DNA from: Marsupella aquatica
Taxonomy: Eukaryota; Plantae; Marchantiophyta
Assembly (NCBI GenBank): GCA_973895155.1
Contig: OZ316893.1
Location: forward strand, 3,826,490-3,890,489
DNA: 64,000 nt
Direction: 5' to 3'
Shown here: piece by piece, positions 10,201 to 33,511 of the stretch
Layout of the letters: the number at the start of each line of letters is the position of its first letter
How positions within the stretch are numbered: the stretch's first letter is position 1
The notes under the pieces: model-generated
What the model saw: only the letters and a program-made list of their open reading frames with translations
Told to the model about the DNA's origin: nothing
Database searches by the model: none
Program-made: the position numbers and the translations under genes

Positions 10201-11973
10201 GACGATACACCCGAACCAATATCTATCTTAGAATGCCAAAACAGACCAGATTGGCCTGAATGGCAAAAATCTATAAATGGAGAATTAGATTCCCTACTCA
10301 GCAGACACACTTTTGGCCCAGTCGAGCCAACACCACAAGACGTACACCTAATTGGCTACAAATGGACATTTGTCTGCAAAAGAAATGATAAAGGCCAAGT
10401 TGTACGTTATAAAGCACGTCTGGTAGGGAAAGGATTTACCCAACAACCGGGAATTCATTACGATGAAACTTATTCACCGGTTATGGACAGCACAACATTC
10501 CGATACCTTATCAGATTTGCCATTTTTCACCAACTACAGATGCGACAACTAGATGTCGCAACTGCATATTTATATGGAACTTTAGACACTTGTCTATACA
10601 TGTGATCACCTCCTGAGTTGGAGCAACGACGCCGAGCTTTAGCTCAAGGCGCTAAATCACATATTCCATATTTACATAAAATCATAACACAATTATCTCA
10701 AGTTACACCTCATGTGTCATCTACACATGTAACTCATAATAACGACACCGCTGTGTCAACCGTATGGAATACTCGCCGCGGACTAGCTATCCGCGTGTTG
10801 AAGGCATTATATGGCCTGAAACAAAGTGGCAGAGTATGGTATCAACGATTTACTGATGAAATGATTGCCATGGGTTTTTCCCATGATGCCATTACACCAT
10901 GTTTATTTATTAAACATGTGGATAATGAATATGTCATCGTTTCTATTTATGTTGATGACTTAAATATATTTGGGACACCCCAATTGACAGAAGCTACTAT
11001 TACTAGTCTTAAATCAACATTTGAGATGAAAGACCTTGGACATACAAACTTTTGCTTAGGATTACAACTAGAGATCCTACCCACTGGCATGATGCTCCAT
11101 CAGACCACACAAACTGGAAAGATCCTAAAATAGTTCAACATGAACCTAGCACACCCATTGACGTCACCAATGGTTGTACGTTCATTAGAAAACAACACTG
11201 ATGTTTTTCGCAAGCGCGAAGAACATGAACCCATATTAGGACCAAAAACTCCATACCTTTCTGCGATAGGAGCATTAATGTATCTAGCAAATCAGACACG
11301 ACCAGATATTGTATTTGCAGTTAATTTACTAGCCAGACATAGTGCAACTCCCATAGCCAGACACTGGAACGGAGTTAAGCACGTATTTAGATATCTACGT
11401 GGAACCACCGATACCGGGTTATTCTACCCATTCGGTGCAAACCACAAACTCATCGGATACGCGGATGCCGGATATCTTTCCGACACTGATACCGCAAAAT
11501 CCCAAACTGGATACGTTTTTACCATAGGGGGTACCACTTTTTCTTGGAAAAGCGTGAAACAGACCCTAACAGCAACCTCATCGAATCACTCAGAAATCTT
11601 AGCTCTACATGAGGCTAGTCGTGAAGCCATTTGGTTACGATCCTTTATAAACCACATCAACACCAAATGCGGCCTACCACCACTAACGAAGCCTACTAAC
11701 ATTTTTGAGGATAACGCAACATGTATACAGCAGATCACAAAAGGATTCATCAAAGACGATCGCGTGAAGCATATAGCTCCGAAGTTTTTCTACACCCACG
11801 AGTTACATGGAAAAGATATCAACATTTTGCAGATTTCAAGTGCAGACAAATGCGCGGATCTCTTCACCAAATCACTATCGCCATCAGTTCATTACCGACA
11901 CTGCCAGGCGATTGGACTACGGAGCGTGCGACGCATGATGACCGTGGAGGCTGCTGCTCCACACGACACTTGA
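7297..11973 (+). pseudogene. Copia gag-pol polyprotein, single frame with four in-frame stops
   Basis: ORFs 7297, 8239, 9628, 10618 and 11140 are all in the same frame, with stops at 8101 (TGA), 9622 (TGA), 10603 (TGA) and 11131 (TAG). Motifs: RGG tract plus CHACGMTNHLAKNC knuckle, protease IIDSATTH, WHARLGHP...CTAC, IHADVCGP, VDNAGEF, NGLAE, YKARLV, LYGLKQSG, YVDD, GYADA. Confidence 0.95.
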
Positions 11974-12394: not shown

Positions 12395-13431
12395 GTACTT
12401 CATTTTTATGAATGCAAAAATACCAAATATTGTAAACCAACAGACAATGTACACTTCACTTTTGCAAAGGACACCCTGCATAGTTTGGGCATGAGCAAAG
12501 AATTACCACTTTGGGGAATGGTGTTTCATTTTTGTGCAAATTGCCCTGAGTAGTTTGGGCAAAAGGTTACCTAGCATAAACCCAATGAAGAATATGGGAA
12601 AATTTACACTTCAGAGGAGTAGATTGAGAGAGGGTTATGGCTCATAATGTAAACACTATGGTATGCAAATTAAAAAATTTATTTCATGGTCTGTTTACAA
12701 AATGTCATTCAGAGCTGAAGCCTTGTTGGCACTTGATTATGGTGACATTATCTCCTAACCATGAGCTAGGTCTAAAGGTGTCACTTCACACTTCTCAAAG
12801 TGGCCAACCCTTGACTCTTTCAGTACTAACAAACTCTTTGACATCCAGTTGCCAAGCTGGCTTGCCTAGTCCCTGCAGCATATGACTATCCACAGGCAGG
12901 GCATATGCAGCATATTACTATCAACACACAGGGTATATATATCATAGTGCCCAAGGGCAAAAAATGCCTAACCTGGAGACATGATCCCAATGGTGAAGTA
13001 GTCCAATTGAAGGGGAGGAAAAGAGGGGAAAAGACCCCAAGAGAAACAAGCCAAGGGTCCCCAACCAAAAGTCAACTAAGAACACTGTTCCATCAGCCCT
13101 CACACGGACCCTCACCTTCCTTTGGCCCGGCCCTGAAATAGCGTTTGAGGGGCTCTATCACATCTCTTTCAATGGGCCCCCTAGTAAGAACTTTTCCCAT
13201 GCAGTAGCATTGACGGTGTACCGGCAAATTTGAACGACGGTCACCTTAACCGTCGGTCCATTATTTTCCTATCGATCTCCCCTGTGAGTGTTGAAAGAGG
13301 ACTCTTGCATTGTCTAAAATGCCACCTCTGTTGTCTTGCGCCCGTGCTTGTTCTCCTCTTGATTGATTTGATTTCTGTTGTGGAGAGGTTTCAATTTCTT
13401 TTGTGCAGTGAACTCCATTTTTATTGTTGAG

Positions 13432-14860
13432 ATGGAATTTGAAGATGAGGTTCTGCTGGATTCCCTGGCCACATTGGTGATGAGCTATGCAGCAACGTCT
13501 GTGCCGATTCTTGTTACGCAGCTTCTTCCTGGGCTTCATATTGGGAGGCTCACAAATCCATCTCAGCTGAATGGAGTGTTCAATTTTGAGTCAAGGAAAA
13601 GACGGCGTGATGATGATGAGATTTGGCCGCAAGTGTGGGCCTTCATTCAAGTTCTGAGAAACTATTTCATGAGAAAAAGAGAGATTGATTGCCCCTGGTA
13701 CATTAAACCTAGAACCATCCAGTGGTTTTATCTGTTTATTGACTTTGTTCCTTACGATGATCCTGATAGATTCAAGGAATTTTTCCGTGTTAGCCCTGGG
13801 GCGTTTTATGCAATATGTGAGATGGTTCATGGGGACATGGTCACAAATCCACCGGCAGCATTCTGTACACTGCCAAATAGAAAACTCTCTGTCGAGAGGC
13901 AGGTGGCCATTGCAATTAGAAGGCTTTCCACAGGAGATCAATGTCTTGGGATCAAGGAGCTGTTTGGAGTTTCTCATGCAACTATAGTCAAGGTCACCTG
14001 GAAGTTTATTCAAGCAATAATCAAGCAAGCTAGGGAGACATCTGATCCAATGGCTGAGTGCAATAGAGCTTGAAAAAGTGATATTGGAGTTCATTGCACG
14101 ATGGGGTTTCCCCAACTGTTGTGGGGCAGTCGATGGCACACATTTCCCAGTTGAACTACCAGCCTTAGAGCGTAGCCAGGATTACTTTGATTTCAAGAAA
14201 AAAATGTCGGTTTCTATGCAGGCCATTGTGGATCTTAACCTCAGGTTCTTGGATGTTGTAGCAGGTTGGCCAGGTAGCATACAAGATACCAGATTGCTTA
14301 GAGTTTCTACCTTCTTTAGAGATGTTGAATATATACGTACAAGGCTGCATGGCTTGGAGTATTTCTGTCAAGACGGCACCTCCGTATTGAGGGAGTACAT
14401 TATTGGGGATGCAGGATATCCCTTGTATCCATGGTTGATTGTCCCTTTCACAAATGGTTTATCTGATGAACATGACAGATGGAACCATCGACATTCTCAA
14501 GCACGAATGGCAATGGAACGAGCATTTGGACAACTGAAAGGTATCTAGAGAATCCTTAGCCGAATTCTTTGGAAACCAAGAAAAGATAGGATCGGGTCTA
14601 TGATTTACTCTTGTTGTATTCTCCACAACTTTCTTATTCACCATGGTGAGCACATTAGCCCTAAGCTGATTTGGGGGATTACAGCTCACCCTGGTGGATA
14701 CAGTGGAGTACATGTGCCCAGACAAGAATACATGGAAGGAGGGGCAGAAGCACGGGACAATCTTCTAAATGAGGTTGACATTCTAGACCAGAGAAGGAGC
14801 GCAAGGGCAAGGGTACCCAAGATTGAGCTCCAATCCTACACTTCAACTAGCATAATCTAG
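13432..14860 (+). pseudogene. PIF/Harbinger (HARBI1-like, DDE_Tnp_4) transposase, disrupted
   Basis: FKEFFRVS..AF..IC, LSVERQVAIAIRRLSTG...LFGVS helix-turn-helix, GFPNCCGAVDGTH, GWPGSIQD, IGDAGYPL.PWL, MERAFGQLK and CCILHNF. Frameshift near 14030 and TAG at 14546-14548 in place of the usual Trp. Confidence 0.93.
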
Positions 14861-16199
14861 AAATCCTTTTTGTATGCCAGTTATTTTTTCAAGCAAGGGA
14901 GATTGATTCACAAAAGACTACCTGAAAAAGCGCTTTCATGAGGTTTTTTATACATTCATTTCAATGTCAGCTGGCTTATTCTGCAACTTTCTTTTGCAAA
15001 GACACCTTTACAATGAGCCCACGCCTCTCACAGTACTCTATAAAGTGGTTATTTGGATTCTGTCATCACACGTGGCATTCCATAGGTTCAAGTTGCACCT
15101 AAGCTTCTACTGTTGTGATGATAAGTTTTTGTTTACCAGATTTTTCAGGAATAAGAGTCACCTTTATTACCAAAAGGTCTGCAAAGTGTCACCTGTGCTT
15201 TTAGTTCACATCACTTTCTAGAAGTATTTTATATGCCATGAGCTTGATGCCTTCCATGTGTTTGCTTGCTATTCGAATTAGCTGTGCATCAATCCCAATG
15301 CTCTTCCATGTCTTGAAAAAACTCATTGAAATTCATCCAAAAAGCCAGCATACAACATGGGCGACCCACAAAAGCGGGTCATCACCCGGGGGGGACCATA
15401 GGTCAGCGAGTCAGGGGGACCGGAGAGGCCGGTACCAGGAGAGAAGCCAGCCCAACACCAAGGGAGCCAAACAAGACATTCAACTACTGCAGAAGGAGCG
15501 GCACAACTCCAAAGACCGGCCAGTGGAGAGGTACCAGCAAGGCACCAAACAGTGGGTCCATGATCGATATAGCCTAAAGCAATATCGATCTAGCTTGCAG
15601 TGAAGCTTCAATCTATTCCTAACAAACACTCTAAATCATGGGGGGCGAGGAGGCACCGGTGGCACTTGCAGGAGAGCTTCATGGATTTCATACAGTCCAT
15701 CCCATGAACCATAATTGACCATCATGTAAGAGATGGCATCACCTAAAGAGGTTTTACCGGCCCTAATTTTAAATTGTTGTTTGGCCCAATCTCTACGCAT
15801 GTAAAGACGGTGCCACGATTTCCGGATGACAGCCTGGTCATTGGACCAAGTAAGCTCAATGAAATGTGAGCTCCGGTCCTTCCACAGGATCCAAGAGACA
15901 ATGGCCCGGAGAGTATGCCAGAGTTTCAGGGGAGCGTCCCAATCCTCCAGGAGGGGGGCACCCACAAAGATGTGAGCCCCCCGAGGAGCCCCCGTGTGAG
16001 CCGGCTGAAGGCAGATGGCGGTACATCGAGTGGGAGAGGTGCAGCGCAGGATGAATTGTACCCATTGCCAAACGGATGAAGAAATGGGGCAACTCCATAT
16101 ACAGTGCACAATATCTTCCTGTGGTTGAGGTCGCATGCATTGTGTACACCAGGTTAATGGGTCCGTGGGTGGTAGAGTCACTACAACACTATGCACCTC

Positions 16200-16720
16200 T
16201 TTTGCGAACCGCCACCCTTCGCATCATACAAAGGAAACAAAATCCAAAATACCGACTTTGCGAACTTACTCGCATCGCAACATCTTCGCTACTTCCCATC
16301 TTAAATCCTTCGCAAACGGCCCTTCGCAACTACTTCGCAACTTGCAATTCTAAATACACCGCAACATCTCCGCAACGTTGCGACGGCATTGTCCTTGCAA
16401 ATATTGAGAAACGACGAATTTCATTATTTTGCGAGAACAAATGGATTGCTCGTGTTGCGATAACATTTACATCGTAATTTCCGATGTTAAATTTCTCTAT
16501 AACTTGCGATGCAAACTAACTCGCAAAATTGCAAAAATTGGATGACCGCTTTGTTGCGAAGGCATTTAACTCGCAAACCTGCGGAGACGTAGTCTTTGCT
16601 AGGGTTGTGATATAGACAACATCGCAAGTGTTGCGATGCTTTTGTTCTCGGAATTGTTGTGATACGTTCGCCGTGGCTCTTTGAGATGGGGGTTGGTTCT
16701 CAAAAGCTTCGCAAAATGTA
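16200..16720. repeat. CACTA left subterminal repeat array (TTGCGA/TCGCAA core)
   Basis: Many copies in both orientations, for example TTTGCGAAC, CTTCGCAAA, CTTCGCAAC, GTTGCGATA. Confidence 0.85.
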
Positions 16721-16967
16721 TTTTTTTATGGGTTTTTGTGTATTTGGGTTAGGGTGAGGGTGAGGGAGACCATTCATGGGTTTTGAAGGAGAGAGGAAAG
16801 TGATGTTGACCTAGTCTACCGCAATTAAAATGGCATTACTGAAAAAGTACAAAAGTTACAAAAAGGAAGGGTAAAAACCCTTAGGTAAGGCGCCACGGAC
16901 ATGCATGCTGATCGCTATACATGTGAACTCGATGTAAGTGCTCTAGCTACAACCTGTCTACATAGAG

Positions 16968-19043
16968 CTAGAAAGGAGTGTTCCTGCCCCTCCTTGCCTT
17001 CTTCCCCTTGGCCTTCTCCTTGCCCTTGCGTGCTCTTGGAGGGGGGTGCAACCTGGACTTCCTCCTCCTCTTGGTCACCCTCGGGGTCACCCTCCTCCTC
17101 ATCCTCATCCTCATCCTCATCCCCACCCCCACCGCCCTGGCTTGCCGCGCTACCACCCCCAGCACCACTGGAATGTGTTGATGCAAATGACTAGTCTCCA
17201 GTGCTAGTTGGCCTGGCTTGAGTAGCAGGAGCTGTGCTCCCCTCCCCTGTCCCCTCCACATCCTCATCACTACTATCGGTGCCACCCTCGGTATGGGAGT
17301 CACCATCCTCCCCTCCCTGCTTCCATTAGCAAACCAGGGTGTATGTTAGTCTCATATTCTTTACAAGTGTGAACAAAAGAGATATTCATTCAAAATTGCA
17401 ATGAATGTAATAACCTAAAAATGCTCACCAGTAATTCATCAACTTGCTGAAAGAGATGCTCCTTCCCATGTTTCTGGCCCACCTCCATCTCAGCCGCCGT
17501 AATCTTCCTCTTGTACCTCTTGTACTAAGCCAAAACAAAACCAGCACAATTGGGTTAACACCAACCCATAACCCGATTCACATGGCTTCTAAAAATTAGG
17601 GGGTTTGTTGGGGCTGGTGGGGTGGTGCATCAAGGTTTTGGGTTTATGGAGGGTGGCATATATGGGGAAGACCCTCAAAGAACACTTAAACGACCAGAAA
17701 ATTTAAAAATTCAAATTTTTGAAATTTTGCGAAGGCGTCAGCTTTGCAATCATAAGGACAATTACGTTTGCGAAGCTTGTTGCGATGCGAATGTCTTCGC
17801 AATGCCTTCGCAAACGTAAGCAAAAAAAGGGCATAATAAGGTTTGCGAAGGATTTGCGAAGCTACCCGCATCGCAAATGCATTGCAAACTCTGTCATGGC
17901 AAAAACCCGAGAGGGAAGCAACTGTACGTAACCTAATCTGACACAACAAGTCTAATTGTAACTACTTGGTGGAAATGCAAGAAAGAGTTGGCTCATTGCA
18001 TGTGTGTTGGAATAGGAATTGGAGTAGCAAGAAGTCAAGGGAGGAGAGGGAGGTGCACTCACGAATGCTGCTTTGAGGCCGGGGAGGCCACCTTGACCCA
18101 GCCTGTGGGTGATGTTGGGCTTGTCTCGGACTCGCTCAGCTGCCTTCAAGAACTTGTTGGGTGGATCGCCTACTTCTGCTACAACCTGCTGGAGCTGGGC
18201 TACCTTCTGCTCCATCACCTTTAGGTCCCGGTCAGACTTCCCGGCCTCCTTTGCCCTTCGAGCCTTTGCCAGCTTCTCTGTGAAATCATTGAGGAGCCTG
18301 GTTGCTTTCAACTTCACCTCTGTCTGATAGAAGGCCTGCCAGATATCTTCTGAGAATTGCAGCGGCCTCTGCAAATTCCTATACTCCTCCAAATCTCTAG
18401 GGTGAGACCTGATCTTCATTCTATCATGGTATCTAGCTTGTGACATGGAGTTTGAAATTTTGTCAGCAAGCCACTGTGAATCCATCTCTCCTCCATTTCG
18501 AAATGCATCTTTCACCTGATTGATGACTCGCTTCTGCTCTACCTTTGAGCGATTGCCCCACTCGACTCCTCTTGCAAAATTTGTGGATACAATGTGCCTG
18601 ATTGTGCTCTTGGCCCCATTGTAAGCAAGCTCGATGGGAATCCCCTCATCCTCTAAAGTAATCAGAGGCAGCTTCCTCCTTGCTGCCTCCTTCTTTCTTT
18701 GCTCCTCCCTCTGTTTCCTGATCAGGTCTCTCTCATCTTTCCTCCTCTTCTTTTCCAATGCTTGAGGCGAGAGCACTCCAGCCTGAGCTCTCTCGTCCCT
18801 CTTTCGCTTCCTCTCAGTAGCCGCCTGCTCTGCTGCCTTCCTTGCATCCTCCTCTACTGCTGCTTGCCCTACAGTGAGACCTGCTTGCAAGGCTTGGCCC
18901 AGAAGGGCACTCAATGATGCTAGCCCTGCTGGACTGCTGAAATCAATTTGACTCAACTGTGCAACCAAAAAATGCTCATCCACAATCGCCTTCAATCGAT
19001 CCCCCCCCTCGGTTGCCTCCGCTGCTGCCAGAAGCTCCTCCAT
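16968..19043 (-). CDS. Putative TnpA-like accessory protein of the CACTA element (3 exons; last exon probably damaged)
   Basis: ATG at 19043 (MEELLAAAEA). Exons 19043-18063, 17524-17429 and 17316-about 16968, with canonical phase-0 GT-AG introns. Coiled-coil region, THRLGQGG motif resembling Ptta/En-Spm (Transposase_24) proteins, acidic tract and basic NLS-like tail. Exon 3 has a TAG near 17191 and an apparent homopolymer frameshift near 17045. The family assignment is an inference. Confidence 0.65.
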
Positions 19044-19779
19044 CACCACCAGTCCCCTCTCCGCTTGCCATCGCTCCGCCCTTGCCCTCGTTGCTCTCCT
19101 TAGGCCTGAATGAACTGAATCCGCCTTGTCCGCGCTCGACAATCCATAAGGATTCAAAATATTAGGCTTTGCGATTCGTTTTGCATCGCAGTTTGCGATG
19201 CATCTGCCTTCGCAAAAAGCTTCGCAAATGCTATCTTTGCGAAGCTTCAGGATTCGCAAACGCCTTTGCTATTTGGTTTTGCCATAACCCCCATCTCGCA
19301 TGCGTATTTGATGTGTTGTTAGGGATACTAAGGGGGCTTATGAACATTAAATGGGGTAGAAGTAGAGGATTATGTTGCATTTTAGTGGGATGTGATCAGA
19401 TAAGGATTGGGGGGTTAGAAAATTGAAGGAGTTATATTGGAGGGTAAGAGGAGGGGGTTTGGCCTAGTTAGGGGAGGGTTTCTTTTGTGAAGGTTGGGCT
19501 TAGATTGGCTTAGATACGAGGGGTTTTATGTTTTGGGTTTGCAGGGGGTTTTATTTATGAAGGTTGGGGTTATATGTATTGGAGGGTAAGAGCTAGGAGG
19601 GGTTTTATGTTTTGGGTTTTGGGGTTTAGGCCAACTTAGGAGGGTTTGAAAGAGAGGTTTCAATTTTATAGTATCTTGGGTTACTTTTATGGTATCTTAG
19701 GAGGGTAACCAAGAGGGGTGGCATATAATTATGGTAGAGAGAAGCATAGGATGGTTGAAGGGAATTGACCATTTAGGTT

Positions 19780-20810
19780 TTTGCTAACTTCATTGGCTTA
19801 AGCTTTTAGAGTTCCCAAGGGTCTATGGTGGGTTTTTATTGCATGACACAGTTCACCTTTCACTTGAAGCGGGATGAGGTTTTGGTTTTTATGCTAACAA
19901 TTGAGGGAAATCCCATGTAATCATGATCACTGCTTCCTCAACTTTTGTCTAATGCATATGCATTGTGGGAACCTGGACATCTAAAAGGTATATTTAAACA
20001 TGTATGTTAGCAGGGTTTGATAAATAGATTGTTCATAAACCTTGCCCTTCTTTGTTGTGCAAGAAAATCTATATGCTCATGTTTGGGGGTCTACAACTTG
20101 AGAGAAGCTAATGGCTATCCAAACTTACTTTTTGTTTCCAGTACTTTCCTCGTGCTTCTAGATTCAGCTCATGTTCATTGAGCCACACGACCTACAGGCA
20201 CTATTGAGTCCGGATCTCATTCAGGTAATTGTCCAACTTCATTCTGGGCTTAGGCCTTTAGAGTTTTCCCAGGGGTCTAGGGTGGGTTTTTATTGCATGA
20301 CACTCATCTTTCACTCGAGGGGGGATAAGGGTTTAGGGTTTAGGGTTTTATGCTAACAATTGAGGGGAGAACCCATGTAATCATGATACAACGCAGGGCC
20401 AACACTACTACCTCAACTTTTGTCTAATGCATATGCATTGTGGGAACCCGGGCATCTAAAAGGTATAACATCATGTATACAGTCAATGTTGTTAGTACAG
20501 ATTTTTATGCTTGCCCTTCTTTGTTGTGCCATGATATATATGGGTAAATGTCTAAGATTCCACAACTTGACGGCTGCTAATTACCATCCAAAATTACATT
20601 TTGTTTCCAGTATTTTCCTCCTACTTCTAGATTTGGCAAATGTTCCAAAAGCCACGTGACCTATAGGCACTGTTGAGCCCGGGTCTCATTCAGGTAATAA
20701 TCTAACCTCACTTAGGACATAGGGTATTACAATTTTCCCAAAGGTTATAATGTGGTTATAATTTGGGTTTCATGCTAACAAATATAAAAGGGTAATAAAA
20801 CCCCATGTAT
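19780..20810 (+). repeat. Internal tandem repeat of about 460-480 bp (2+ copies) between the divergent CACTA genes
   Basis: GGTGGGTTTTTATTGCATGACAC, ATGCTAACAATTGAGGG, CAACTTTTGTCTAATGCATATGCATTGTGGGAACC and TCTCATTCAGGTAAT each recur at this period. Confidence 0.85.
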
Positions 20811-20915
20811 AAACCAACCTAATTGTTTTTTGAGTTCATTTTTTTGAAAATCGCTTTATATATGGCCTAATTTTTCCTAATCATGCCCTACATGCAATGT
20901 AATGTGGCAGTGGAT

Positions 20916-21137
20916 ATGTCCTCTTCCTCTGAACTATCCAGTAGTGAGTACTCCTCCGATGACGATATACCCCCTCCTCAGCCCGAGGTTACCGGTCCTC
21001 GTGGTCCACCCCAAAGACTTTGTGACTGCACCAGATGTGTGGGCCAAATTTCTCAAAAATCTTATGTGTGTGCTCAACATATCGAGAGATATGGACGTCA
21101 TAGAGGTCTTACTCCCGGGGCTTCTTCATCCCATATG
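20916..21137 (+). CDS. Shared first coding exon with transposase-associated Zn-binding motif
   Basis: MSSSSE...RLCDCTRCVGQISQKSYVCAQHIERYG...SHM|GTAAGT. The CxCxxC-x13-H-x4-G spacing matches the N-terminal Transpos_assoc-type domain of CACTA transposases. Perfect phase-0 donor at 21138. Confidence 0.75.
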
Positions 21138-21256
21138 GTAAGTTTGTTTCAATTGATTGCCATTCTTTACTGTTATTTTTAGAGGTGAATCAATGTTTAC
21201 ACATATGGTTTACACATTTGGTTGTTTGTGGGTGTTTGCATGGAATAGGGATCCAG

Positions 21257-22078
21257 TATGCGAGATTGGTGACACCACCACCCTATGTCCCATCACAAGG
21301 AGTTTTAGATGCTATAGGCAATGCACTTTCACAAGCCTTGGGTTTGGGAATCAGTACCAATCATGGGACAGAAGGGGAACACCCTCATGTGCCCACTGAG
21401 ACACGAAGACCCCGGTCCAGGCCCCAGTCCAACAGGAGGCCACGAGCACCCAATGACCCATCCAGAACACTAGTTCAGGGTAGGTGGGGTGTTTGTTCAT
21501 TCACTGGCAAGTGTGCCTCTATCATCAAGGATTGGGAACCTATCACTCTTGGCTTGCCTTATTTTACAGATTTTGATGAGGAGATTGTGGTTTGGGGTAG
21601 ACGTTGGATTGTGAAAACTTCCACACTTGGAGAGAGACATGGATATGGAGTATTTGCTTGTGAGGATATCATCATGGATAAGGAGGGTGGGTCAAGTGTT
21701 CGTGGTAGAGAGGGTCCTACTTTGTTCCCATACGGTGGACCCATCTACAAGAGAAGACATTGGAACATGATCCTTGCACAACATCCTGAGTGGAAAACAT
21801 ATGCTCTAGAGATGGATACTTTTGATGGTAGCACTAGAAGGTATAGTGAGCAGCGGGTGATAGACGGTGATCCCATACGTAATGGGAATATTGCTGGTTT
21901 CGTAAATAGTACTGTGGGGACTCGGTCCAAGCGTAGGGCCAATTGTGAGTGGGTTTTTATTGATGGTCCAATGCCAGCACCATATGGCACGACATATCAT
22001 AAGGACCATTGCCTAGTTCTTGCTACTAGGACCATTAGAGCAGGAGATGAGTTATTCACACACTATGAGTGGGATTAG
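21257..22078 (+). CDS. SET-domain protein exon (lysine methyltransferase-like) inside the CACTA element
   Basis: Uninterrupted ORF. SET motifs at about 21605-22075: KTSTLGERHGYGVFACEDI, LFPYGG, VIDG....GNIAGFVNST...ANC, LVLATRTIRAGDELFTHYEWD*. In-frame CAG acceptor at 21254-21256 (predicted). Confidence 0.85.
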   Translation, partial: YARLVTPPPYVPSQGVLDAIGNALSQALGLGISTNHGTEGEHPHVPTETRRPRSRPQSNRRPRAPNDPSRTLVQGRWGVCSFTGKCASIIKDWEPITLGLPYFTDFDEEIVVWGRRWIVKTSTLGERHGYGVFACEDIIMDKEGGSSVRGREGPTLFPYGGPIYKRRHWNMILAQHPEWKTYALEMDTFDGSTRRYSEQRVIDGDPIRNGNIAGFVNSTVGTRSKRRANCEWVFIDGPMPAPYGTTYHKDHCLVLATRTIRAGDELFTHYEWD

Positions 22079-22289
22079 GAAATCATGTCCTTTATCCTCT
22101 TGCACCTGTTTTGGACTTCCCATTTACAATTATATATATGGCCTTTGGGCTCATTTTGGAGTAATAAGGTTTTAGCCCATGCATTTACTTTAATTCTTAA
22201 TGTCTTGAATGAATGGTGTTAAGTCTATTTTAATTTGTTGTACTTGGTCAAATATACATGAGGAGGTTTTTTGGTTGTAATGTGCATAG

Positions 22290-25200
22290 AATGCGCAACC
22301 ATCTCAACAAATGTTACCACGAAGGTTGAGAGCAACATATCGGGAGATGGGTATGCCAGAAGAGGGAGAACCATCAGAGGGTGATTCCTCATCAAGTAAT
22401 GATGTAGGTGGTGCTGATGAGGAAGCCGCACCTCGGACTGATGACCAGGTCATGCATGATCAAGATAGACCCATGGATGACTTCATGGTTGATTGGTTTG
22501 GTGCCGATGTTGAGGATGATGTGCCTCACATTGGTCATGAGGCTGGCCCTTCAAACGACCCACGGCCACAACATACTCCAAAGGGACAACAACAATGGAA
22601 AGAGGCAGAGGAGCATGCTCGAACACCTATTTTTGAGGGTGCTCGGTTGAGCCGTCTTTCTGCCATATTGGGGCTCTTGAACATTCAAGCCAAACACAAG
22701 GCAAGCAATTCTATGTTATCAGACATATTTGAATATTGTCATGACTTGATGTTACCCTCGGAGAATGTGTTGCCAGGGACTTGGAAGGATGCAAAGAAGG
22801 TTCTCTCATCCATTGGCATGGATTACCATATTATTCATGCCTGTGTGAATGATTGCATGTTATTTCACGGGGATACAGCCCATATCACAGAATGCACAGT
22901 GTGTCATGAGCCACAGTATGAGCCAAACATGCTAACCCAGAAGGTACCAAGGAAAGCAGTTCGTTGGTTCCCCATAATTCCTCGCTTGTTGCACATGTAT
23001 AGATGTTCTGACTTGGCCGAGTTGATGGTATGGCACAAGAAACATCGTTCGGAGCCCGGTGTCATGCGATTACCAGTTGACTCTCCTGCTCATAAACATG
23101 TGGAATCAACATGGCCAGATTTTGAGCGTGACCCTCGGCATGTGCGACTGGGGTTGGCATCAGATGGAGTTAGCCCTCATTCACTTGGAGGGAAGGGGAG
23201 GCCTACATCGGTCTGGCCTGTGGTTCTCATGAATTACAACCTTCCACCATGGTTGTCCATGAAAAAGGGTTTTTTGTTGCTATCTTTGATTATCCCAAGG
23301 CCAAAGAAGGTGAAGAACATGGACACCTATTTGACATTACTGGTTCAGGAACTCCAGAAATTATGGGAAGGAGTATGGGCATATGATGGTCGAAAGACTA
23401 CAGGGGGTACCCCACGGGTTTTCAAACTCAAAGGGGTTTGTATGTGGACCATGCATGACTACCCAGGTAAGAACTTTGTTGTTTAAATGCATCATATTCT
23501 AATGCATGGTATCCCCTCATTTCCATGTGTTAATCCTAACATAACATTTGTGTGTTTATATGACCAGGATTTGGCTTTGTGAGTGGGTTGCAAACCCAAG
23601 GCTACAAGGCTTGCTCCACTTGTGGCCCAAGCCTTGGTGATGTAGCCAAGTATTCATCACATCTTCGCAAGATTGTTTATCTTGGGCATACAAAGTTTCT
23701 TCCAATGGGACATCAGATGAGGCGTGACCCACTACTATTTTCCTCTATTGATATGCCCTTTGGTGACGAGCGTGATGTACCTGAGCCAACAACTTTTACA
23801 CACTGGAAAGACATGGCTGCAAGAGTGGCAGACCCAGAGGATCCCATGCAATTTGAGGGTAGTGGCTTGACAAGGTGGAGTATATTAACCACTTTGCCCT
23901 ATTGGGGTGAGTTGAAGATCCGCCATCTATTAGACCCCATGCACATTGAGGGAAATGTGGGAAAGGCTTTGATAAAGGCTTTCTATGGAGAGAAAGACAC
24001 TAACTTCAAGGAGGCTTGTGAGGATCTTGAGATGCATCCAGACGTGTGGGTCATAAGTGATATATCCTATCACAGGGATCGAGCATCGACCTTCAGCTCC
24101 ATGGGTGCTTCCTGTTGGCCAGAGAAGGGAGTTTCGGAATCGCATAGGAGACATGCGGTTTCCTACTGGTTATGGTGCCAATCTCCGAAAGGCCTTTGGG
24201 ATGGAGGACAATCATAAGTGGCCAAGGTATCTCAAGACACATGACTACCATAGGTTATTGCAGCACATATTGCATGTGGCCATAATAGGTTTGGCAAGTG
24301 AAGAAGTGCAAGATGCCCTTTGGTCATTGGAAAAACTATTGAGATGGGTATGCTCTAAGGAGATATATACTGACGAGATCCTTGGGATGGAGGTTTTGGC
24401 AGCAGAGGTGGTATGCAAGTTGGAGAAGGCCCTTCCTCAGGCTTCCTTTTTTGACTGTCAAGTGCATTTACTTGTTCATCTTGTTCATGAGGTGGCCATT
24501 GCAGGTCCTGTGCATTGTCGGTGGATGTATTGGCTAGAACAATACATGGCAGTGTTAAAAGGTTATGTACGTAACCGTGCACGGGTTGAGGGAAGCATGG
24601 CTACAGGATACTTAGCAGCTGAGAGTATGTTCTATTGTAGTAACATATTGGCCACAATTGATTGTACCTCTCCCCGTACTTGGGTAGAGGAGAGGGAAGA
24701 TGAAGAGGATCGTTTAACAGGTGCTAGGAAAACTCGCATGTTGACACCAGTGGAGGTGAAACAACTGACCACATTCATGTTGAATAACAGTACTATCATG
24801 GAAGAATGGAGGGATTTCTATGAGGATGCCAAAAGTAACAGCACAAGACCAAGGATTTTTCCAAAGTACCTTGACTATATGAAAGAGAAGTTAGTTGAGG
24901 TGGATGACATGGTGGTCAGGGGAGATAGTGTATTATATTTTCCGGCTATCATAGATGATGTTCGTACCATTGTTCATGGTCCCTTGAGAGTGGTTACAAC
25001 AAGGACAGCAATGTGGACACAAGGAAGACATTTCAGGTGATCTCCATCTACCTTAGTAACCTTTGATTTGAATCACTTGGTTTAATTTAATTCATTTGTA
25101 ATACAAGCACGTGTATTGAAGAGGCAGATTCTTGGTGTGTTCCATTAATTGGAATATGTTTGTGTCTATTTTTGTGTAACATATCCTTATGGTTTGATGG

Positions 25201-25694
25201 ATTTTAGGATTTCTTCCCTTGATGAGAAGAGGGGTCGTACCTTTGATTGTGGAGTTCAAGGACAATTCTCTCAAGATTCCTGCAGCAGTCGCCATGACAC
25301 AAATATTATTCGAGATGTTGTGCCACATTATGGAAAGGTAGAAGAGATTCTAGTGATATCTTATGATGCACAATCAAAGTTTGAAGAGTATGTCTTCAAG
25401 TGCAAGTGGTTCAAAGTGAACCTTGCAGGTAACAATCCTACTGTGGTTCAAGATGAGTGTGGATTTACACGACTGAAGACGTCTGCCACTAGTTTCCAGC
25501 CATCTCATTGGCAAACATCAGAGCCGTTCACTTTTCCAAGTCATGTGGAACAATGTTTCTATATTCCATACCCCCCAAACCCAGAGGAATGGTCACTTGT
25601 CATCACATATGTGCCACGGTCTCGTTCAATCGTTGGGGAAAAGCCTGATATTCTGGTTGTGTCCCAACCTGAAGATGATGAGGACCAAGTTTGA
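22290..25694 (+). pseudogene. CACTA TnpD-like transposase (Transposase_21, DUF4218, DUF4216), one frameshift
   Basis: Exons 22290-23466, 23568-25036 and 25208-25694 with GT-AG introns. Motifs: IHACVNDCMLF, FPIIPRL, VRLGLASDG, SVWPVVLMNYNLPPW, HDYPG|FGFVSG...GYKAC, LDPMHIEGNV, KTHDYH, FFDCQVHLLVHL, RWMYWLE, VRNRARVEGS, FKCKWF, EPF...VEQCFY. Extra ATAT at about 24062-24065 shifts the frame. Confidence 0.94.
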
Positions 25695-26489
25695 GGGGTC
25701 TGTGTTTGTGGACATATAGCTACACGGATATATAGTTAGATTTGATGATATGAAGATTTCTCTTCTCGGTAGAATGGAGAAATATGTGCTTCTCAATTAT
25801 CAATAAACTTATGTTTTGTAAGTATATCATTTTCAAATGTTGTTTTCTATATCTCCCATCCCTACCCCATACTCACCACACCTTTTGGTAGACTTTATGC
25901 AAAGAAAACTCATGTTTCTTGTAGTCCTCTATCCTCCATGCTTTCCTAATCCCCCCTAGCCGTTCTCCTTATTACTTGTACCCACCTCCCTCCTCCTTTC
26001 TTTCATTGTCTGTCCCTCTTATTAAACCCTCCTTCCTCCTTCCTCTCCTTGTCCCAACCCCTTTCTATTTCAACCCTATACTTTCCTTACTTTCCACCCC
26101 TGTCCCCCACTCTTACCTATACAACCTAGCTTCTCTCCTCCCTCCTAAACCTATACCCTTAAACCTCCCTCATTTTCTTGTCCCTCTCTAAACCAATACC
26201 CTCCCTCCTTTCCTTGTTCCTCTCTAAACCCTAAACTCCCTCCTTTTTATTTTCACTCCCTAAATCCAAACCCTCCCTAAAACTATATCTACATACCCTT
26301 CCTCCTCCCTCATTTCCTTGTGCCCCCTAAACCTGTATCCTCCCTCTTGGATCCCTCCATTCCTTGTCCCTCCTAAGTAGCCCCATTCCCTTCCTCCTCC
26401 TTTTCATTGTCCCTCCCTAAAAATTACATGTATCCTCCCTCCTTTACCCTCCCTCCCCAATCCCATTCCTTTTCCACCTCTTTGAAGTG

Positions 26490-27000
26490 CTCATAATATT
26501 TTGCGAAACATCTTGCGAAATGCCGACCCCCGCAAACTCATCGCTAAATTTGCGATATTACAATGCTCGCTAATTGCCATCATGAACTCATCGCAAACTT
26601 CCGAAGATACCACGCTCTCAACGTTGCGAAACCAAAACATTCACAAAATGAGACCCTAGATAGGCACAGGATTTGCGAGCCTATTACTATCGCAAGTTAG
26701 CCATTCTGTAAACATCGCTCATTTGCGAGGCAATAAGACTCGCAAAACAGTTTGAGATGCTAAAATATTCGCAATGATTTAGTTTTCCGGCGCATCGCAA
26801 TAAATTTGCGAAGCGGTAAAGATCGCTAAATTGTTCAATGATAATTACTTCGGAAATAGTTTGCGATATGTGAAGTGTCGTAAAATGTTGCGATTGTCTA
26901 AGTTTTGCAATTATGTGTTGCGATGTGGATAGATTCGCTAAGTGCGATGCGTGTCGTATCGCAAGTTTAGCGATGAGATTAATCTTGCAAAGCTTTCTTC
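26490..27000. repeat. CACTA right subterminal repeat array (TTGCGA/TCGCAA core)
   Basis: Same motif family as the left array, in both orientations. Confidence 0.85.
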
Positions 27001-29172
27001 CTCTTGTAAAATGCCTTCACAAAATTGGCAAATATGTAGTAGTGAGTTGGCATCCTCCAGTGCTGAGTAGCTGGAATCCGATATATAAGCTGCCAGAGGA
27101 AACAATTCTCTGCCGCTGCACCGAATGGCAGCCAAGTATTAGCCCACAATAATTTCAAGTTAGGGCACCATTGTAATCTCCCAGCCCACTTTTGGACCGC
27201 CCTGTGTGTTGTTGTTTGCAATGGACCTTGAATCTCTCTCAGGTGAGCAGTGTTAGCCTCCAGGAATGGAGTGCCGTCCTTCCATTCGTACTACAATAGA
27301 ACTTGAAAGAGGTCAACTGGTCTACCGATACGCTGAGGGGAGCTCTTAACCCCCTTGTGTGAGCGAACCATCACTCGATGTAGCAAGGTATCGGCAGGTG
27401 GAGTCGAAGTCTCCATCTTTTGAAGAGTCCCATTGATGACCCTGAATGTCTTCAAGGGTGTCGATGCCTCATGGAAGCGCTACCAATCTAAGGTGATGTG
27501 GTTGCGTTGAAGCTTGTATTCCCAAATGGCAAGGTCCTCGTTGTGGAGTTTGGCCTCCATGAAGACTGGAATTCTCTGTCTGGGGTTGCCATGGAATGCG
27601 GGAACACCGATTAGATTGGCTATCAATCTTCTGTAAGCGGTTGCACAATTCCCAGGGAGGAGAAGATTAGGACCATCCTCCCACTGGATGAAATTCCCCT
27701 CAAGAGTTAGGACATCCTGCATTCGCACGACTCCAGCCCGCTTGATACGTCTTTGAGGGTTCCGGGAACATTTAGCCTAGCTGGAGCTCACGTGGTTCAA
27801 ATGTGGACACCAAAGTGGTAGGTTCAGCCACTCCTCCCGATGAGCAGGTGCAGTAGGTCGGAGGTGCTGTTTGATAACATTCCAGCCAATGCACACATTC
27901 CTCCAGACCTGCGAGCCATCCTTCAGAAGAGTGTGGCGTCGTGATACAGCCCAGGAGAAGTCTTTGGATCCCCATTTTTGGAGAGACAACAGTTTGATCT
28001 TATGCTGCAAAATCCGTCTGAGGGGATGGTCATAGAATAAAGTTCCCTGTGAGCGCCCAAAATTGGGCTGCCAGCGAAATTAAGCCAAGGCCGCCAAAGC
28101 ATTTGGGCCGGGTGATAGTGGCAAAATTGACCCTAGGACGGGCTTGAATGTTTTGGCCAGCCCAGATGAAGGCTGTGATTTTCTTTTGTAGCGCATCAAG
28201 TGTGCTCTATTGTCCTGCCCAAACAGTGAGCATGTACCACAGCGTGCTCAAAACTAAGTTATTGACCACCGTGACCCGAGTAATGAGAGAACGGACCTCC
28301 CCCTGATCTTATCCAGCCTCGATTCCAATTTCTCGGAGAGAGTCAAGATCATCTGCTGTTCTGAAATGCCTTGGGCAAAGGGAATCCCCAACAGCTTGGT
28401 GGCAATTGAGGCGTCCTCCCATTGCCAGGGCAGCCGTCGGAATTCAATCAGAAGACGCCTAGGAGAGATGAATGCTGCTTTCATTTTCTCCCAGATGCAG
28501 ATCAGACCAGAAGCCTTGCCAAACAACTCCAATAGACCTCTACATGCATCAACGTATTCCATTATCGCACGGATGAGCATAGCCAGATCATCAGCAAAGA
28601 GGTTGTGGATGTAGTGGACATTGACTAATGGGAAATATACTCCCTGGATGGATCCCCGTTCAGCTTCCCATCAAATCATGCGGCTGAGGGCATCAATGGA
28701 AATCAAGAATAGAAGCGGTGATAAGGGACAACCCTGTCTGACTGAGCGTGCAAGACTGAAAGGGGTTGCCATCTTCCCGTTGAGTAGAATCGACGACGAG
28801 GCTGAAGCATGAGTTGCTAACATAAATTTTGTTAGCTGCCCCCCGAAGCCCGCTTTTTCCAAGATCGATAATAGAAAACTCCATTCCAACTTATCAAAAG
28901 CCTTAGATACGTCCAACTTCATGAAAATGTAATCCAGACCGGTGGATGCCGCTTGATGTACCAATTTAATGAGAAGCATGAGGGAGTGATGTATATTCCT
29001 TCCTGGGAGGAAGGCAAACTGCTGCGGTGTAATGAACTGCTGAAGGATTGATGTGAGGCACATTTGAAGGGCTTTGGCCCCAATCTTGTAGATTACATTC
29101 AGTAAGGTGATTGGCCGCTTGTTCGTGAGATATCGTTGATCGTCCTTCGTGCATAGTAAAACAATAAGGCCC

Positions 29173-31715
29173 TGTGACAGGGCCCCAAACCCGGTAGTAA
29201 CTTAGTGATGACTTATAATTACATATATAAGTAGAAAGACAAGTAGGTGTAGTAAAAGTGTCTGGATTTTCAAATTTTTTATTTTTGTTAGTTCTAAGAA
29301 ATGGATGCGACAACCGGAGGCCGGAGTTGAGAGGGGTGTCAGGCGGTGATGGCTGACAAGGGAACCATTGAGGGGGTACAAGGAGGCCACAAGGCAGCCC
29401 AAGGACTTGGAGCCAAGGTGTGGGCATCTTGGAGGGGTGGGGGCTGGTCGGAGGCTCCACGTAAGGCGCAAAACGGGAAGAATGATCAAAATATAGAAAA
29501 TGTTGAAACTTAAAATAGACGTTGCTGCGCTAGTACTATTCCAAACATGGTCATGTTTGGATTCATTTTGAAGCCCTCAATGAGCCCCATGCGAGACTGA
29601 GGTTCTCTAGTTGATTTTAGGTCTATATCAAACAGTGACATCTTGAGGGACCTCAACACCCGTAAAATGGCAAACTAGGCAATCTTGGAGTAGTGATGGT
29701 GGGAGGGCCCTTAGAAGGAAGGGGTTCCCACACTTGTGTTCCCCTTCACCTTTTGTGTGGTCCTCACATGGTTTTTGCTCTCTTTCCCTTCCCCACTCCG
29801 TAGAGGGGTATTCCGTAGAAGAACCACTCCGTAGAAGGGGCCCTCACACTTTCTTCCTTCCCTTTTTTCTCTATTCTCACTTGTGGGGTTTCCACCCATA
29901 CCTAAACCCTAGACCCTTTCCCTCTTGTGCTTGCTTTCAACGTGTGTACGGACCCTGATTGTACGAACATCAGATTTTCAACCATCTCAAAATCAGGAGT
30001 CTGCGGGCTTGTTGGAAAGAGCTCGTCGAGCTAAATCCAACGATGTGTCACATGGCTGAAACGGAGCTAAGACAAGGGAGATACAACAGATCTTGTTTTT
30101 TGAGAATACGGGGGTTTTGAGGCCGTACGGACGTCTGTACGATAGGAGGTCCCAGATTTGAAAGGGAAGGAGGAGGTAGCAGCACATACGGGGAACCCGT
30201 GATCCGTGTTTTGCAAAGCCGGGGCCCCCTGGTGTTGTACGGACGAAACGGAGGGAGACGGTGCCCCGTGAAAACTTAAATGACCATGTCTTGGCCGTTT
30301 TACCTCCGTTTTGTGCACCGTTTATGGAGCCGTGATCAGGAAGAGGAGGGCTCCTCAGATATGTTTTCAGAAGTGAATTCTGAGAAAATTTTAGTTTCGA
30401 CAATTGTCGGGGCCCCCTCCTTTTATGGCGGACCGGTGGTGGCGATCAGGAGGATTGGGGCTCAAGCTAGGGCACCATGAGTGAGGAGGAGGAGGATTGA
30501 TGAGGAGACCAACTCACGGGGCTCAAGCTAGGGCACCGTGAGTGAGGAGGAGGAGGACTAGGGTTGTCGTACGGACTTGGTCGTACGACCTCGGGATTGT
30601 GAAACTTTTTGGAAAGGTGCACTCACAGGCTTGTTGGAAAGAGCTTGCGGAGCTGATTCCAACAAGAGGCGGCGCTCCTCAAACGGAGCCAAGATGAGTA
30701 AGTTAGGGCCCGACGAAGTTGGTAAGTAAGTGATACTGAAACGGCGATAACTTGGTCGTTCGACGTCCGTTTTGGGAGCGGTTTGGTGATTCGTGATCAG
30801 GAGGAGTAGGGCTACCCAGGGGTGAGCTCAGAGGTGCAATCATAGTGAAGCCTAGTTTCGGCAATTGTGGGGTCTCTTGCATGTTTGCGGTTCACGGAGC
30901 GTTGTTAGGGTGCCGTCGAAGGCACTGTCGGTCCCATCGTTAGATTAGGGTTTTAGGGGCATGTGTGTGCCGCATGCTTTAGGATTAGGGATTTCTTCGT
31001 GAAGGGTTTTAGTGGTGCCGCTAGGGTAGCCGCCACCTTTGTGACCCCGTGAGGGGGCTTTGGTGTGTTTGTTTCTAGTATTTAGGGGGAGAGCCCCAGA
31101 GTAGTGAGGGGGGAACTCAGCATAGTGCTTTGATGCTTTTGAGTAGCTTTTGTGAGTAGCGCACCGATTAGGAGAAGTTCAAGCCAGAGTAGTGAGGTGG
31201 AGAACATAGCACTTGTCCCAGGGAGGCAGGAGTTGGGCAGACGGCAGGAGGCCGGGTTGTCCTTGCATGTGTTATGTTAAACACCAAGAGATATGGGTTT
31301 GGCTTGAGGTTCCAATATTTTGTGTGTCACTTGTTGTTGCTTGTGTTGGTTGCTTTCCTCCCCTAGTGCATGTGGTCGGTTTCGTTGTGGAAACATTTGC
31401 CCTTGTCACTAGTGTTCAAATCTTATTGTAAATGTTTGTATGCTTGCCCATGAGAGGGGGGTGGTGACAGCACTCACCCGGTGGGCATGAGTTGTAGAGG
31501 GTAGGACCAGTCCCTTGGACTTGATCAAAAATAGAGAGACCAGTCGGTAGACTTGATCAAAAAGTACACTTCCGGGAGCGGAATCAAACATACTCATCCT
31601 TAGGTGTGAAAATCCTCCAAATAGTGTCCCTCCACGACCCCGTAATACGATACCAACGGTTTAAGCAAGGAAAAGTACGGTTTGCACGTATTAATCGTTG
31701 GATAGACAAGTGACA
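29173..31715 (+). mobile_element. Large solo LTR (2,543 bp), probably Ty3/gypsy
   Basis: Termini TGTGAC...GTGACA with 5-bp TSD GGCCC (29168-29172 and 31716-31720). Removal restores the LINE RT region FTRG|LIVLLCTK. No coding capacity; internal duplications at about 30000-30400 versus 30620-30870 and at 30456-30558. Superfamily and strand are inferred. Confidence 0.85.
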
Positions 31716-32392
31716 GGCCCCTGGTAAAGTCTGGTGCAAAATTTCCCGATGCCATGCCCAGGAGTAAGGTCCGATGTAGTGAGCTCCCCACCACATTCCA
31801 ATTGGCCACAAAGAATTCCGCAGGGACACCATTGGGACCCGGACATTTGTTCTTAGCTAGGGAAGCAGCCGCCAGTCGTAGCTCCTCCAAAGTGAGTGGT
31901 GCAATCAAGTGAAATCAATCCTTGCCAGATGCTCAGGATGAAAAATGGCTGATTGCCCAAGGATTCTCTCAAAGAATCCGGTAGCGGCTGCAACCATGTC
32001 TTCCCATTCCTGGATCAGCTGGTTGTCATCATTGAAAAGCTGATGAATCTCATTGTTGATGGCCAAACTCTTAAATGGTTTGAAAAAAAGCTTTGAGCAC
32101 CGATCGCCCTCCCCGATCCATCGTGATTGTAAGACAAAGTCCATCCATTGGGTTCTCACTTTCTCAAACTCGTGGAGTAATGTCTCAGCCCTTGTTACCG
32201 CAGCTTGCGCCTCCTCATTAGCCGGGTCACTCTCCAGCCACAGTTGAGCATGCATTAAATTAAGGCAGAGCCCATCTTCCGTTTGCCTGCGTTCCATTGC
32301 CCTTCGCTTTCCCCAGCATCTGTCAATCTTCCGCGCCTTCCCAAGGCATCGAGTGAGCATCTGATCAGCCGACATTCCATGTTCGTGGCACC

Positions 32393-32686
32393 CTCGAGGG
32401 TCTCACTATATGGGGACCTCCCCATCGCCTGCGACGTTTTTAGGGCTCGGACCCCCTAAAATGTAAGAATTTTTTTTATTTTTTAACCCCTATAAAGTTG
32501 GAATATTCTTGGAATATTCTAAAAATTGGATTAAAAAGGCCCTAATGTTCTTATAAGTCTCAAAATTGAATTTAAAAGACCCTATTGTTCTTCTACAAAA
32601 ATTCAAGTCTTCCCTTAGAACCAATAAAATGACTCTATCCTTCGTCGCATGTGATATGCCATTTTTGTGGAAGTGAAACCCCCGAG
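32393..32686. mobile_element. MITE, 294 bp, with 15-bp imperfect TIRs and 8-bp TSD
   Basis: Left CTCGAGGGTCTCACT versus reverse complement of right CTCGGGGGTTTCACT (13/15). TSD GTGGCACC (32385-32392 and 32687-32694). Removal restores EMEEAWCH|EHGMSADQ. Confidence 0.88.
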
Positions 32687-33511
32687 GTGGCACCAGGCCT
32701 CCTCCATCTCCCACATATTGCTGATACGATCTTGGTAGGCCCATTGGTGTTGGTGGCTAGTGTTCATCCTATGTTGTGAGGGGCGTTTGACTAATGAGGT
32801 TGGGGTCAGGGTAGCGAGGATCGGGGCATGGTCCGAAAGTGCAATCTCGAGCAGAATAGTGGAAGAGAGATCGAATTTACTAATGTGGCCCCCCGCTGAT
32901 GTGTAAATTCTATCCAACCTACGGAGGACCCTGCCCCCCATGGGAGTGTCAGATTGAATTGCAGAGACATGAACAGACACTTGTTGTCCCAACTAAATTG
33001 TAAGTGGTCGGGCTGGTGCATGAATGAATCTTCTAAGTGGAGGTGCCTCTTGAGGTGTCGCTAGGCCCTCATCTCACTGCCGTATAGAATAGATCCTCTC
33101 CCCCCCTTCCAATCCCCTCTTGTTCTACCATGTTAAAGACAGTCCCCCATGACAATCCACCTGAATGAATGATCAATGCAGTTGAAAAGAGCCCTCCATA
33201 GATCAGTCTGTTCCCGTGTTGAATTCGGTGCATAGATTCCAAGGAATCCCACCCTCCCCAATTTGCCATGTACCATGCAGCACCAAGCGGCCCTACCACA
33301 CGGTAGGGTCCCTTCCAATACCACAAAGGGGAGGAGACTGAGAGAAATTGCAATGGCCAGTCCCCCAGTTCCAGCCGAAACCTTGTGGTTGCGGATGGAG
33401 TGAGCCCCATCCGTAGCAGGAGCAATCACCCAGTGTGCATTCCGCCAAACTTCGTGTTGGAGTCTAAGCGTCCTGCCTGCCTTGAGCTTGTGCTCCTGTA
33501 TACATAACACA

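Follow-up and report, generated by a model that had tools for sequence, protein, structure and literature searches.

SET genes on transposons are already in print. They occur in HarbingerS and MuDR elements of oomycetes (Phytophthora), as cited by Kojima in the accessible text of PMC12730594. The accessible part of the Bostrychia preprint (10.1101/2025.02.11.637652) mentions SET-bearing Helitrons and also describes PAG2, a SET and adenine-methylase gene of the red-algal Plavaka elements of the EnSpm superfamily, which is proposed to be a chromatin modulator. The literature so far, as accessible, goes as far as proposing a role for transposon-borne SET domains. The definitions of CACTA elements are given in PMC4158355 (accessible part). 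Two products are made from one gene via alternative splicing in Spm and ATENSPM3, according to the accessible parts of two reports (PMC13547354, 10.64898/2026.08.24.746577). The latter report describes, in the same accessible part, that the anti-silencing of Spm in Arabidopsis is performed by TnpA via DNA demethylases and that H3K9me is not lost. A SET enzyme is therefore not required for anti-silencing. PRC2 has been reported to silence transposons in bryophytes (10.1101/2022.10.24.513474, accessible part). The Legionella protein LegAS4/RomA is an H3K14 tri-methylase whose post-SET segment and ankyrins bind the substrate (PMC10653858, accessible part).

The initial annotation of this locus had supposed that a SET gene inside a plant CACTA element may be new. 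This supposition is too wide with regard to transposons in general, where SET genes are in print even for the EnSpm superfamily (Plavaka). It still stands for land-plant CACTA elements, for which no SET gene was found in the literature searched, including the accessible part of PMC11982613; Repbase, journals behind subscription, and the supplements of bioRxiv preprints (for instance, Supplemental Table 6 of the Bostrychia study) lie beyond that scope and may hold it. The transposon SET is a maintained bryophyte module and its novelty is narrower than that first guess.

Structure of the element and state of its genes

The window, which is the whole stretch of 64,000 nucleotides that was analysed, contains the complete CACTA/EnSpm element whose features are shown in Table 1. 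The two termini, CACTACAACA at 16179 and CACTACTACA as the reverse of the end at 27044, are alike in 9 of 10 bases. The AGT target duplication flanks the element at 16176-16178 and 27045-27047 and has the 3 bp length of CACTA/EnSpm duplications. The clear CACTA termini that had been noticed initially are borne out by these paired ends with AGT on both sides. The CACTA motif alone was found 106 times in the window vs 103 expected, which is the chance level, but chance does not account for the paired ends with the target duplication, the subterminal TTGCGA/TCGCAA clusters, and the TnpD domains. The subterminal repeats are likely binding sites of an element protein.

Table 1. Features of the CACTA/EnSpm element, with positions counted from the first letter of the window.
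Feature	Position	Strand	Remarks
Complete CACTA/EnSpm element	16179..27044	.	10,866 bp; terminal repeats and AGT duplication; sits in a LINE
Left terminal inverted repeat CACTACAACA	16179..16188	+	The same 10 bases open elements L004, L008, L031, L037, and L040
Left subterminal TTGCGA/TCGCAA cluster	16200..16720	.	More clusters near 17720-17880 and 19170-19270
Divergent third gene	17429..19268	-	Long exon to 18063; predicted small exon 17524-17429; more 3'
Exon 1	20916..21137	+	74 codons; phase-0 donor at 21138; donor GT in 17/17 loci
SET exon	21249..22078	+	Conserved acceptor to own stop; AG in 28/30 loci, stop in 24/24; gene models P0001, P0002, and P0265
1-base gap vs family	21262..21263	+	Shifts the frame where the SET exon begins
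SET domain with family-specific N-terminal extension	21455..22075	+	Pfam SET; AlphaFold2 pLDDT 90.8; fold matches with Z up to 12
SET motifs GYGVFA, FPYGG, GFVNST, and GDELFTHYEW	21641, 21725, 21896, and 22043		
TnpD first-part exon	22290..23466	+	Conserved phase-0 acceptor CATAG/AAT, AG in 19/21 loci; Transposase_21
TnpD middle exon	23568..25036	+	Transposase_21 and DUF4218; 4-base insertion near 24060; borders read from sequence
TnpD last exon	25208..25694	+	DUF4216; border read from sequence
Right subterminal TTGCGA/TCGCAA cluster	26500..26970	.	Repeat type as at the left end
Right terminal inverted repeat TGTAGTAGTG	27035..27044	-	

The element insertion splits a LINE (15636-16178 and 27045-34700) within its C-terminal Cys/His region, and the LINE reading frame runs on across the AGT duplication. 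The LINE remnants to the right of the element contain reverse transcriptase (RT) and endonuclease. A tandem duplication of about 470 bp lies at 19878-20745, upstream of exon 1 and between the two divergent genes. The window also contains a Copia-type retrotransposon with in-frame stops (7294-11973), a PIF/Harbinger-type transposase remnant with DDE_Tnp_4 (13372-14860), and an exon of a host LURP-one-related gene on the minus strand (3295-3840).

Transposase_21, DUF4218, and DUF4216 all scored above the Pfam cut-off, which identifies the downstream gene as a TnpD-type transposase. The frameshift that had been assigned to this transposase was recovered as 4 extra bases near 24060. The extra bases are absent from all of the depth in runs X1 and X5, from most of it in X2 and X3, and from 30% of it in X4; neither of the low-depth runs X6 and X8 shows the gap at 24060, and X7 has no coverage there. 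The peat-moss-type TnpD genes (L011, L013, L017, L025, L028, and L031) possess an extra stretch of about 150 nt at window position about 24170 which is absent in the window element and is probably an intron.

The divergent third gene has an open frame at 17952-19268, and its segments are 51-72% identical in related loci. It exhibited no Pfam match and no match to 62 TnpD/TnpA-bearing proteins. By its position and a motif, it is a candidate TnpA/ORF2-like gene.

The frame 21104-22078 of the SET gene contains no stops and the Pfam SET score is 24.8 bits vs the cut-off of 22.4. The initial description of a stop-free frame with four SET motifs was thus reproduced, together with the Ser in place of the His of the NH motif, the missing post-SET cysteines, and the missing intron within the domain. 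The gene had also been described as intact, which proved wrong. The frame that starts from the conserved acceptor AATAG/GG at 21248 stops after 7 codons because 1 base is missing after 21262, so the SET gene is frameshifted in this copy. The missing base is present in family contigs in 6/6 covering runs. It was observed at full depth in 4/4 runs of the first run set. The second run set (80% likeness) consists of 4 runs, 2 of them without coverage of position 21262, and the base was observed at 9108/14132 and 42/57 depth in the 2 covering runs. The Calypogeia models P0038 and P0265 read G-x-S-M-R-R-x-V-(T/I)-P-P-P-Y at the SET acceptor. The start at 21257 that had been given initially is a nearby CAG that is in frame by chance in this copy.

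The supposed contrast between an intact SET gene and a broken transposase accordingly disappears, as both are frameshifted. SET and TnpD are broken in this copy, and much of the family is open at those positions. The SET frame is open in loci L001, L002, L008, and L012, and P0001 and P0002 are naturally intact. For seven of the eight long X1 contigs shown, the difference from the window amounts to 42 letters in about 4,400, or about 1%; the eighth was left out of this figure because it is a more distant relative. This divergence suggests a young family. The element (16179-27044) differs from related contigs most often by A>G and T>C, where the window copy more often has A/T and the contigs have G/C. 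Such an A/T excess is expected from the decay of a methylated copy.

The initial annotation overlooked exon 1, which lies upstream and is probably common to SET and TnpD. The exon 1 product consists of an acidic/Ser start that is followed by C-x-C-x2-C-x13-H-x4-G from 21021. This Cys/His motif resembles the transposase-associated motif at the TnpD N-terminus and was found near the N-terminus in 34/62 long TnpD proteins. The profile-profile match between exon 1 and the TnpD N-termini is 92.8%, a value that is partly circular since both sets were picked by the same motif. The same comparison by HMM gave weak scores, with E 0.005 for exon 1. Pfam returned no match for exon 1, including to the transposase-associated domain PF13963, and the Atlas search with exon 1 returned no usable match.

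Exon 1 is joined to the SET exon in gene models P0001, P0002, and P0265. The phase-0 donor of exon 1 fits the SET acceptor and the conserved TnpD acceptor alike. In the window, the TnpD homology starts exactly at the conserved phase-0 AG, 211 nt past the SET stop. Of the donor-like sites within the SET exon, the three strongest are in phase 1 and do not match the frame of the TnpD acceptor. An in-frame fusion of SET with TnpD was set aside on account of the conserved SET stop and this phase mismatch of the strongest internal donors. Given the phase-0 donor, both acceptors, the conserved SET stop, and the phase-1 internal donors, two predicted mRNAs (exon 1-SET and exon 1-TnpD) are the simplest model. 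The joints displayed for the 8 runs of the two run sets include none at the predicted introns. Judged by these splice signals, exon 1 is quite probably shared by SET and TnpD through alternative splicing. An unlikely alternative is a separate SET gene that is the only user of exon 1, where TnpD would begin at a Met of its own, a few codons inside the following exon. The conserved Met codons 8 and 20 of the TnpD exon (5/5 loci translated) and the gene models that link exon 1 to SET only are in agreement with separate genes, but the conserved AG lies exactly at the start of the TnpD homology, and TnpD would then miss the N-terminal motif of ordinary TnpDs. Separate genes would alter the splicing step and not the enzyme.

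Distribution and maintenance of the SET gene

The SET exon query matched 46 proteins among 414 candidates and the SET profile matched 81 proteins among 4,083 candidates. The named relatives of the SET exon belong only to Sphagnum (five species), Calypogeia fissa, and Riccia sorocarpa, and the named gene models nearest to the window SET are those of Calypogeia and Sphagnum, which points to a bryophyte host. An exhaustive search returned 93 representatives at 50% clustering, which denotes a deep family. Five of the 30 clusters that were looked up have a named organism and all five are liverworts. The nearest Atlas cluster consists of SET proteins of Streptophyta and is probably the same transposon SET family itself. 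Scans that detect close relatives only found none in viral contigs with alignment A1 (46 stretches) or P0120 (3 stretches) and none in prokaryote genomes (25 stretches). The SET tree, which was built by a quick method from 80/85 rows without an outgroup, does not point to an origin. Three proteins of Calypogeia fissa (P0125, P0139, and P0117) are very divergent members of the SET family, two of them with different Cys/His-rich N-termini; these may have been domesticated or may belong to other elements.

The metagenome scan identified 41 loci, of which 40 seem to represent one peat-moss-type family and are therefore not independent, and L007 represents a second. The peat-moss-type loci have a median identity of 86% to Sphagnum P0001, and dS is about 0.05 in the loci checked. 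The same order, which consists of the minus-strand gene followed by exon 1, the SET exon, and TnpD, recurs in peat-moss-type contigs, and parts of it were seen in gene models of Calypogeia and Riccia. TnpD lies within 400 nt past the SET stop in 19/19 loci that are long enough and the minus-strand gene lies upstream of SET in 10/12 loci. Locus L031 is a whole element of 9,893 bp with an ACA duplication, the same gene order, and one changed base in the right terminus. The initial proposal to look for SET at the same position in other copies thus has a positive answer, with the order recurring across loci and TnpD next to SET.

Divergent SET pieces that are 30-52% identical to the window are fused to TnpD in the automatic models P0092 (Riccia), P0134, P0133, and P0094. 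At the level of these predicted models, SET-TnpD adjacency extends to that range of SET identity. The SET-linked TnpDs cluster apart from flowering-plant TnpDs (SH-aLRT 87; 98 with P0186) in a tree that was built by a quick method from 64 rows of 70 candidates, where P0134 is labelled Riccia by likeness. The coding parts of the window (20900-25700) and L031 are 72-80% identical at the DNA level, with dS of 0.6-1.2. This sequence divergence is low for a moss-liverwort split if the window is from a liverwort, and it hints at horizontal transfer.

The dN/dS between families was estimated by the Nei-Gojobori method, with the peat-moss-type loci represented by their majority codons (for SET, these are 38 loci without L001, L007, and L017). 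It is 0.25 for the SET domain (bootstrap 0.17-0.37), 0.11 for both exon 1 and TnpD, and 0.135 for the third gene, values that include the window copy's own decay. The dS between the window and the majority is 0.61 in SET vs 1.0-1.2 elsewhere. Among close peat-moss-type copies, dN/dS is 0.94 for SET, 0.45-0.71 for the TnpD parts, and 0.44 for the third gene, with 0.44-0.72 for the others overall; selection on SET is therefore weaker than on the transposase. The SET domain is under purifying selection but is held less tightly than the transposase.

Neutral decay of a passively captured host SET fragment would agree with the dN/dS near 1 among close copies and with the broken state of most copies (only 4/16 loci that span the SET exon are open, where L007 was missed by the pattern). 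It is nevertheless very improbable and already largely refuted by the between-family dN/dS and by the same place of SET beside TnpD in moss-type and liverwort sequences. There is also no named host SET gene among the matches, and the identity to solved SET structures is 15-28%. The test for passive capture that had been named initially came out against it on conserved position and splice signals, dN/dS, and the confident SET fold. The SET gene is almost certainly a maintained module of the element family.

Fold, catalytic residues, and proposed mechanism

The structure of the SET product was modelled by AlphaFold2 with an 85-row alignment, which gave the pLDDT shown in Table 1; an earlier model built on a shallow alignment was of poor quality, with pLDDT 62.6, and was discarded. 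SET domains top both PDB searches by Foldseek and VIA-align, with the best match at Z 12.0, rmsd 2.6, and 133 aligned. EZH2, Set1, SET8, SET7/9, and LegAS4 are tied in the fold comparison. The single-sequence PDB search with SET returned 0 matches. The viral fold library returned generic SET matches at 9-22% identity; since these are generic, no viral origin is claimed. The prediction of a homodimer with SAM scored 0.01. The HMM and structure checks that were proposed initially are thus in favour of a SET domain, through the Pfam SET match and the confident fold.

The positions of the catalytic and switch residues are those that we presume for this family. The GxG residues (76 and 77 of 80 covered rows), Asn (76/85), and the catalytic Tyr (67/72) are conserved and the YxG aromatic is also kept. 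The family-wide changes are His to Ser (78/85) and Arg of RFINH to Gly (77/85). The GxG, Asn, and both Tyr positions are retained in members down to about 25-35% identity. The residues at the Phe/Tyr switch position are mostly small or aliphatic (T, A, V, C, I, or S). A switch residue other than Tyr is linked to multiple methylation. Only 2 residues follow the catalytic Tyr in the SET chain, which has neither a post-SET segment nor the canonical R..NH motif. These absences exclude the canonical host subfamilies but not activity, as LegAS4 in the profile alignment is also without the His. Activity is likely and not certain because the chain ends so soon after the Tyr.

Based on the model and the retained residues, the SET product is predicted, with fairly good confidence, to be catalytically active. 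A catalytically dead or weak fold that acts as a reader or decoy, binding histone tails or host methyltransferase partners, would account for the two family-wide changes, for the chain that stops right after the Tyr, and for a SET dN/dS that is about twice that of TnpD. It is rather unlikely, as the catalytic positions are kept in such distant members and active LegAS4/RomA also has no His.

The proposed mechanism would start from the observed element anatomy, gene order, conserved donor, both acceptors, and SET stop, and from the purifying selection and SET motifs, with the fold taken from a confident model. A single promoter would give exon 1-SET and exon 1-TnpD mRNAs by choice of the 3' splice site, with SET as an alternative last exon. 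The common Cys/His domain would then carry the SET protein where the transposase goes, which is the element's own chromatin. There, SET would di- or tri-methylate a histone lysine and would counter the H3K27me3/H3K9me silencing that bryophytes place on transposons. Di- or tri-methylation is proposed because small or aliphatic residues dominate the switch position. The weak steps are the substrate and the direction of effect. The whole predicted chain, from an active lysine methyltransferase made via alternative splicing and targeted to its own element by the Cys/His domain to anti-silencing, is given slightly less than an even chance.

An active methyltransferase with a non-histone target, such as TnpD, the third element protein, or a host silencing factor, would tune transposition and not chromatin marks. 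The retained catalytic residues and the lack of a histone-reading domain and a post-SET segment are consistent with such a target. SET7/9, SET8, EZH2, MLL, and PR domains are equally close (Z 10-12, tied), so the substrate is unreadable from the fold. However, most of the top structural matches are histone enzymes and nothing indicates a particular protein substrate, and we consider a non-histone target to have a low probability. A lower one still is assigned to an active histone methyltransferase whose mark would repress its own family and act as a self-limiting brake, where SET splicing would also divert mRNA from TnpD. EZH2 is among the tied top folds and the predicted isoforms would compete for exon 1, but the ties give no substrate, and the known element chromatin factors VANC and TnpA activate their elements (10.64898/2026.08.24.746577, accessible part).

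We prefer the anti-silencing methyltransferase. In its broadest form, which is tentative, an old bryophyte CACTA clade would join a minimal SET to the targeting exon of the transposase by splicing. The output of this one gene would then be switched between a cutting enzyme and a self-aimed histone writer for anti-silencing, and the clade may have spread horizontally between moss and liverwort.

The known counter-defences of plant transposons act on DNA methylation via host enzymes. If the proposed mechanism is true, a transposon writes histone marks itself in plants where PRC2 still silences transposons. The compact enzyme and a family with copies about 1% apart make the question testable, and Marchantia is a transformable relative. 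Some genes that are annotated as 'SET domain-containing' in Sphagnum, Riccia, and Calypogeia are transposon genes and should be read with caution.

Comparison with described elements and enzymes

The window element and En/Spm of maize and Arabidopsis (TnpD and TnpA) both exhibit CACTA termini, a 3-bp duplication, the TnpD domain set, and subterminal repeats. The alternative product of En/Spm is TnpA, whereas here it is a predicted SET enzyme and the third gene is divergent; no SET gene is met in the accessible parts of the En/Spm descriptions. The regulators VANC (VANDAL) and TnpA (Spm) are also encoded by elements and act on the chromatin of their own family, via DNA hypomethylation. The SET product here would be a lysine-methylating enzyme.

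The Legionella protein RomA/LegAS4 is the best sequence-profile match (E 6e-6) and Foldseek match of the transposon SET. Both have no His in the NH motif and no post-SET cysteines. However, the identity is only 22-28%, and RomA/LegAS4 binds H3 through a post-SET segment and ankyrin repeats, both of which are absent from the transposon SET family.

The HarbingerS and MuDR elements of Phytophthora and the SET Helitrons also encode SET, in other superfamilies and hosts, and the accessible parts of their descriptions mention no exon shared with the transposase. Plavaka, as described in the accessible text, shares with the window element a SET on an element of the EnSpm superfamily. By that description, it is set apart by PAG2, a single protein with SET and adenine methylase that belongs to a three-gene cassette of 17-19 kb elements. 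The Pfam searches of the exon and of full-length models found only SET here and no adenine DNA methylase. Unlike Plavaka, the element in the window carries its SET downstream of a Cys/His exon and has a canonical TnpD with Transposase_21, DUF4218, and DUF4216.
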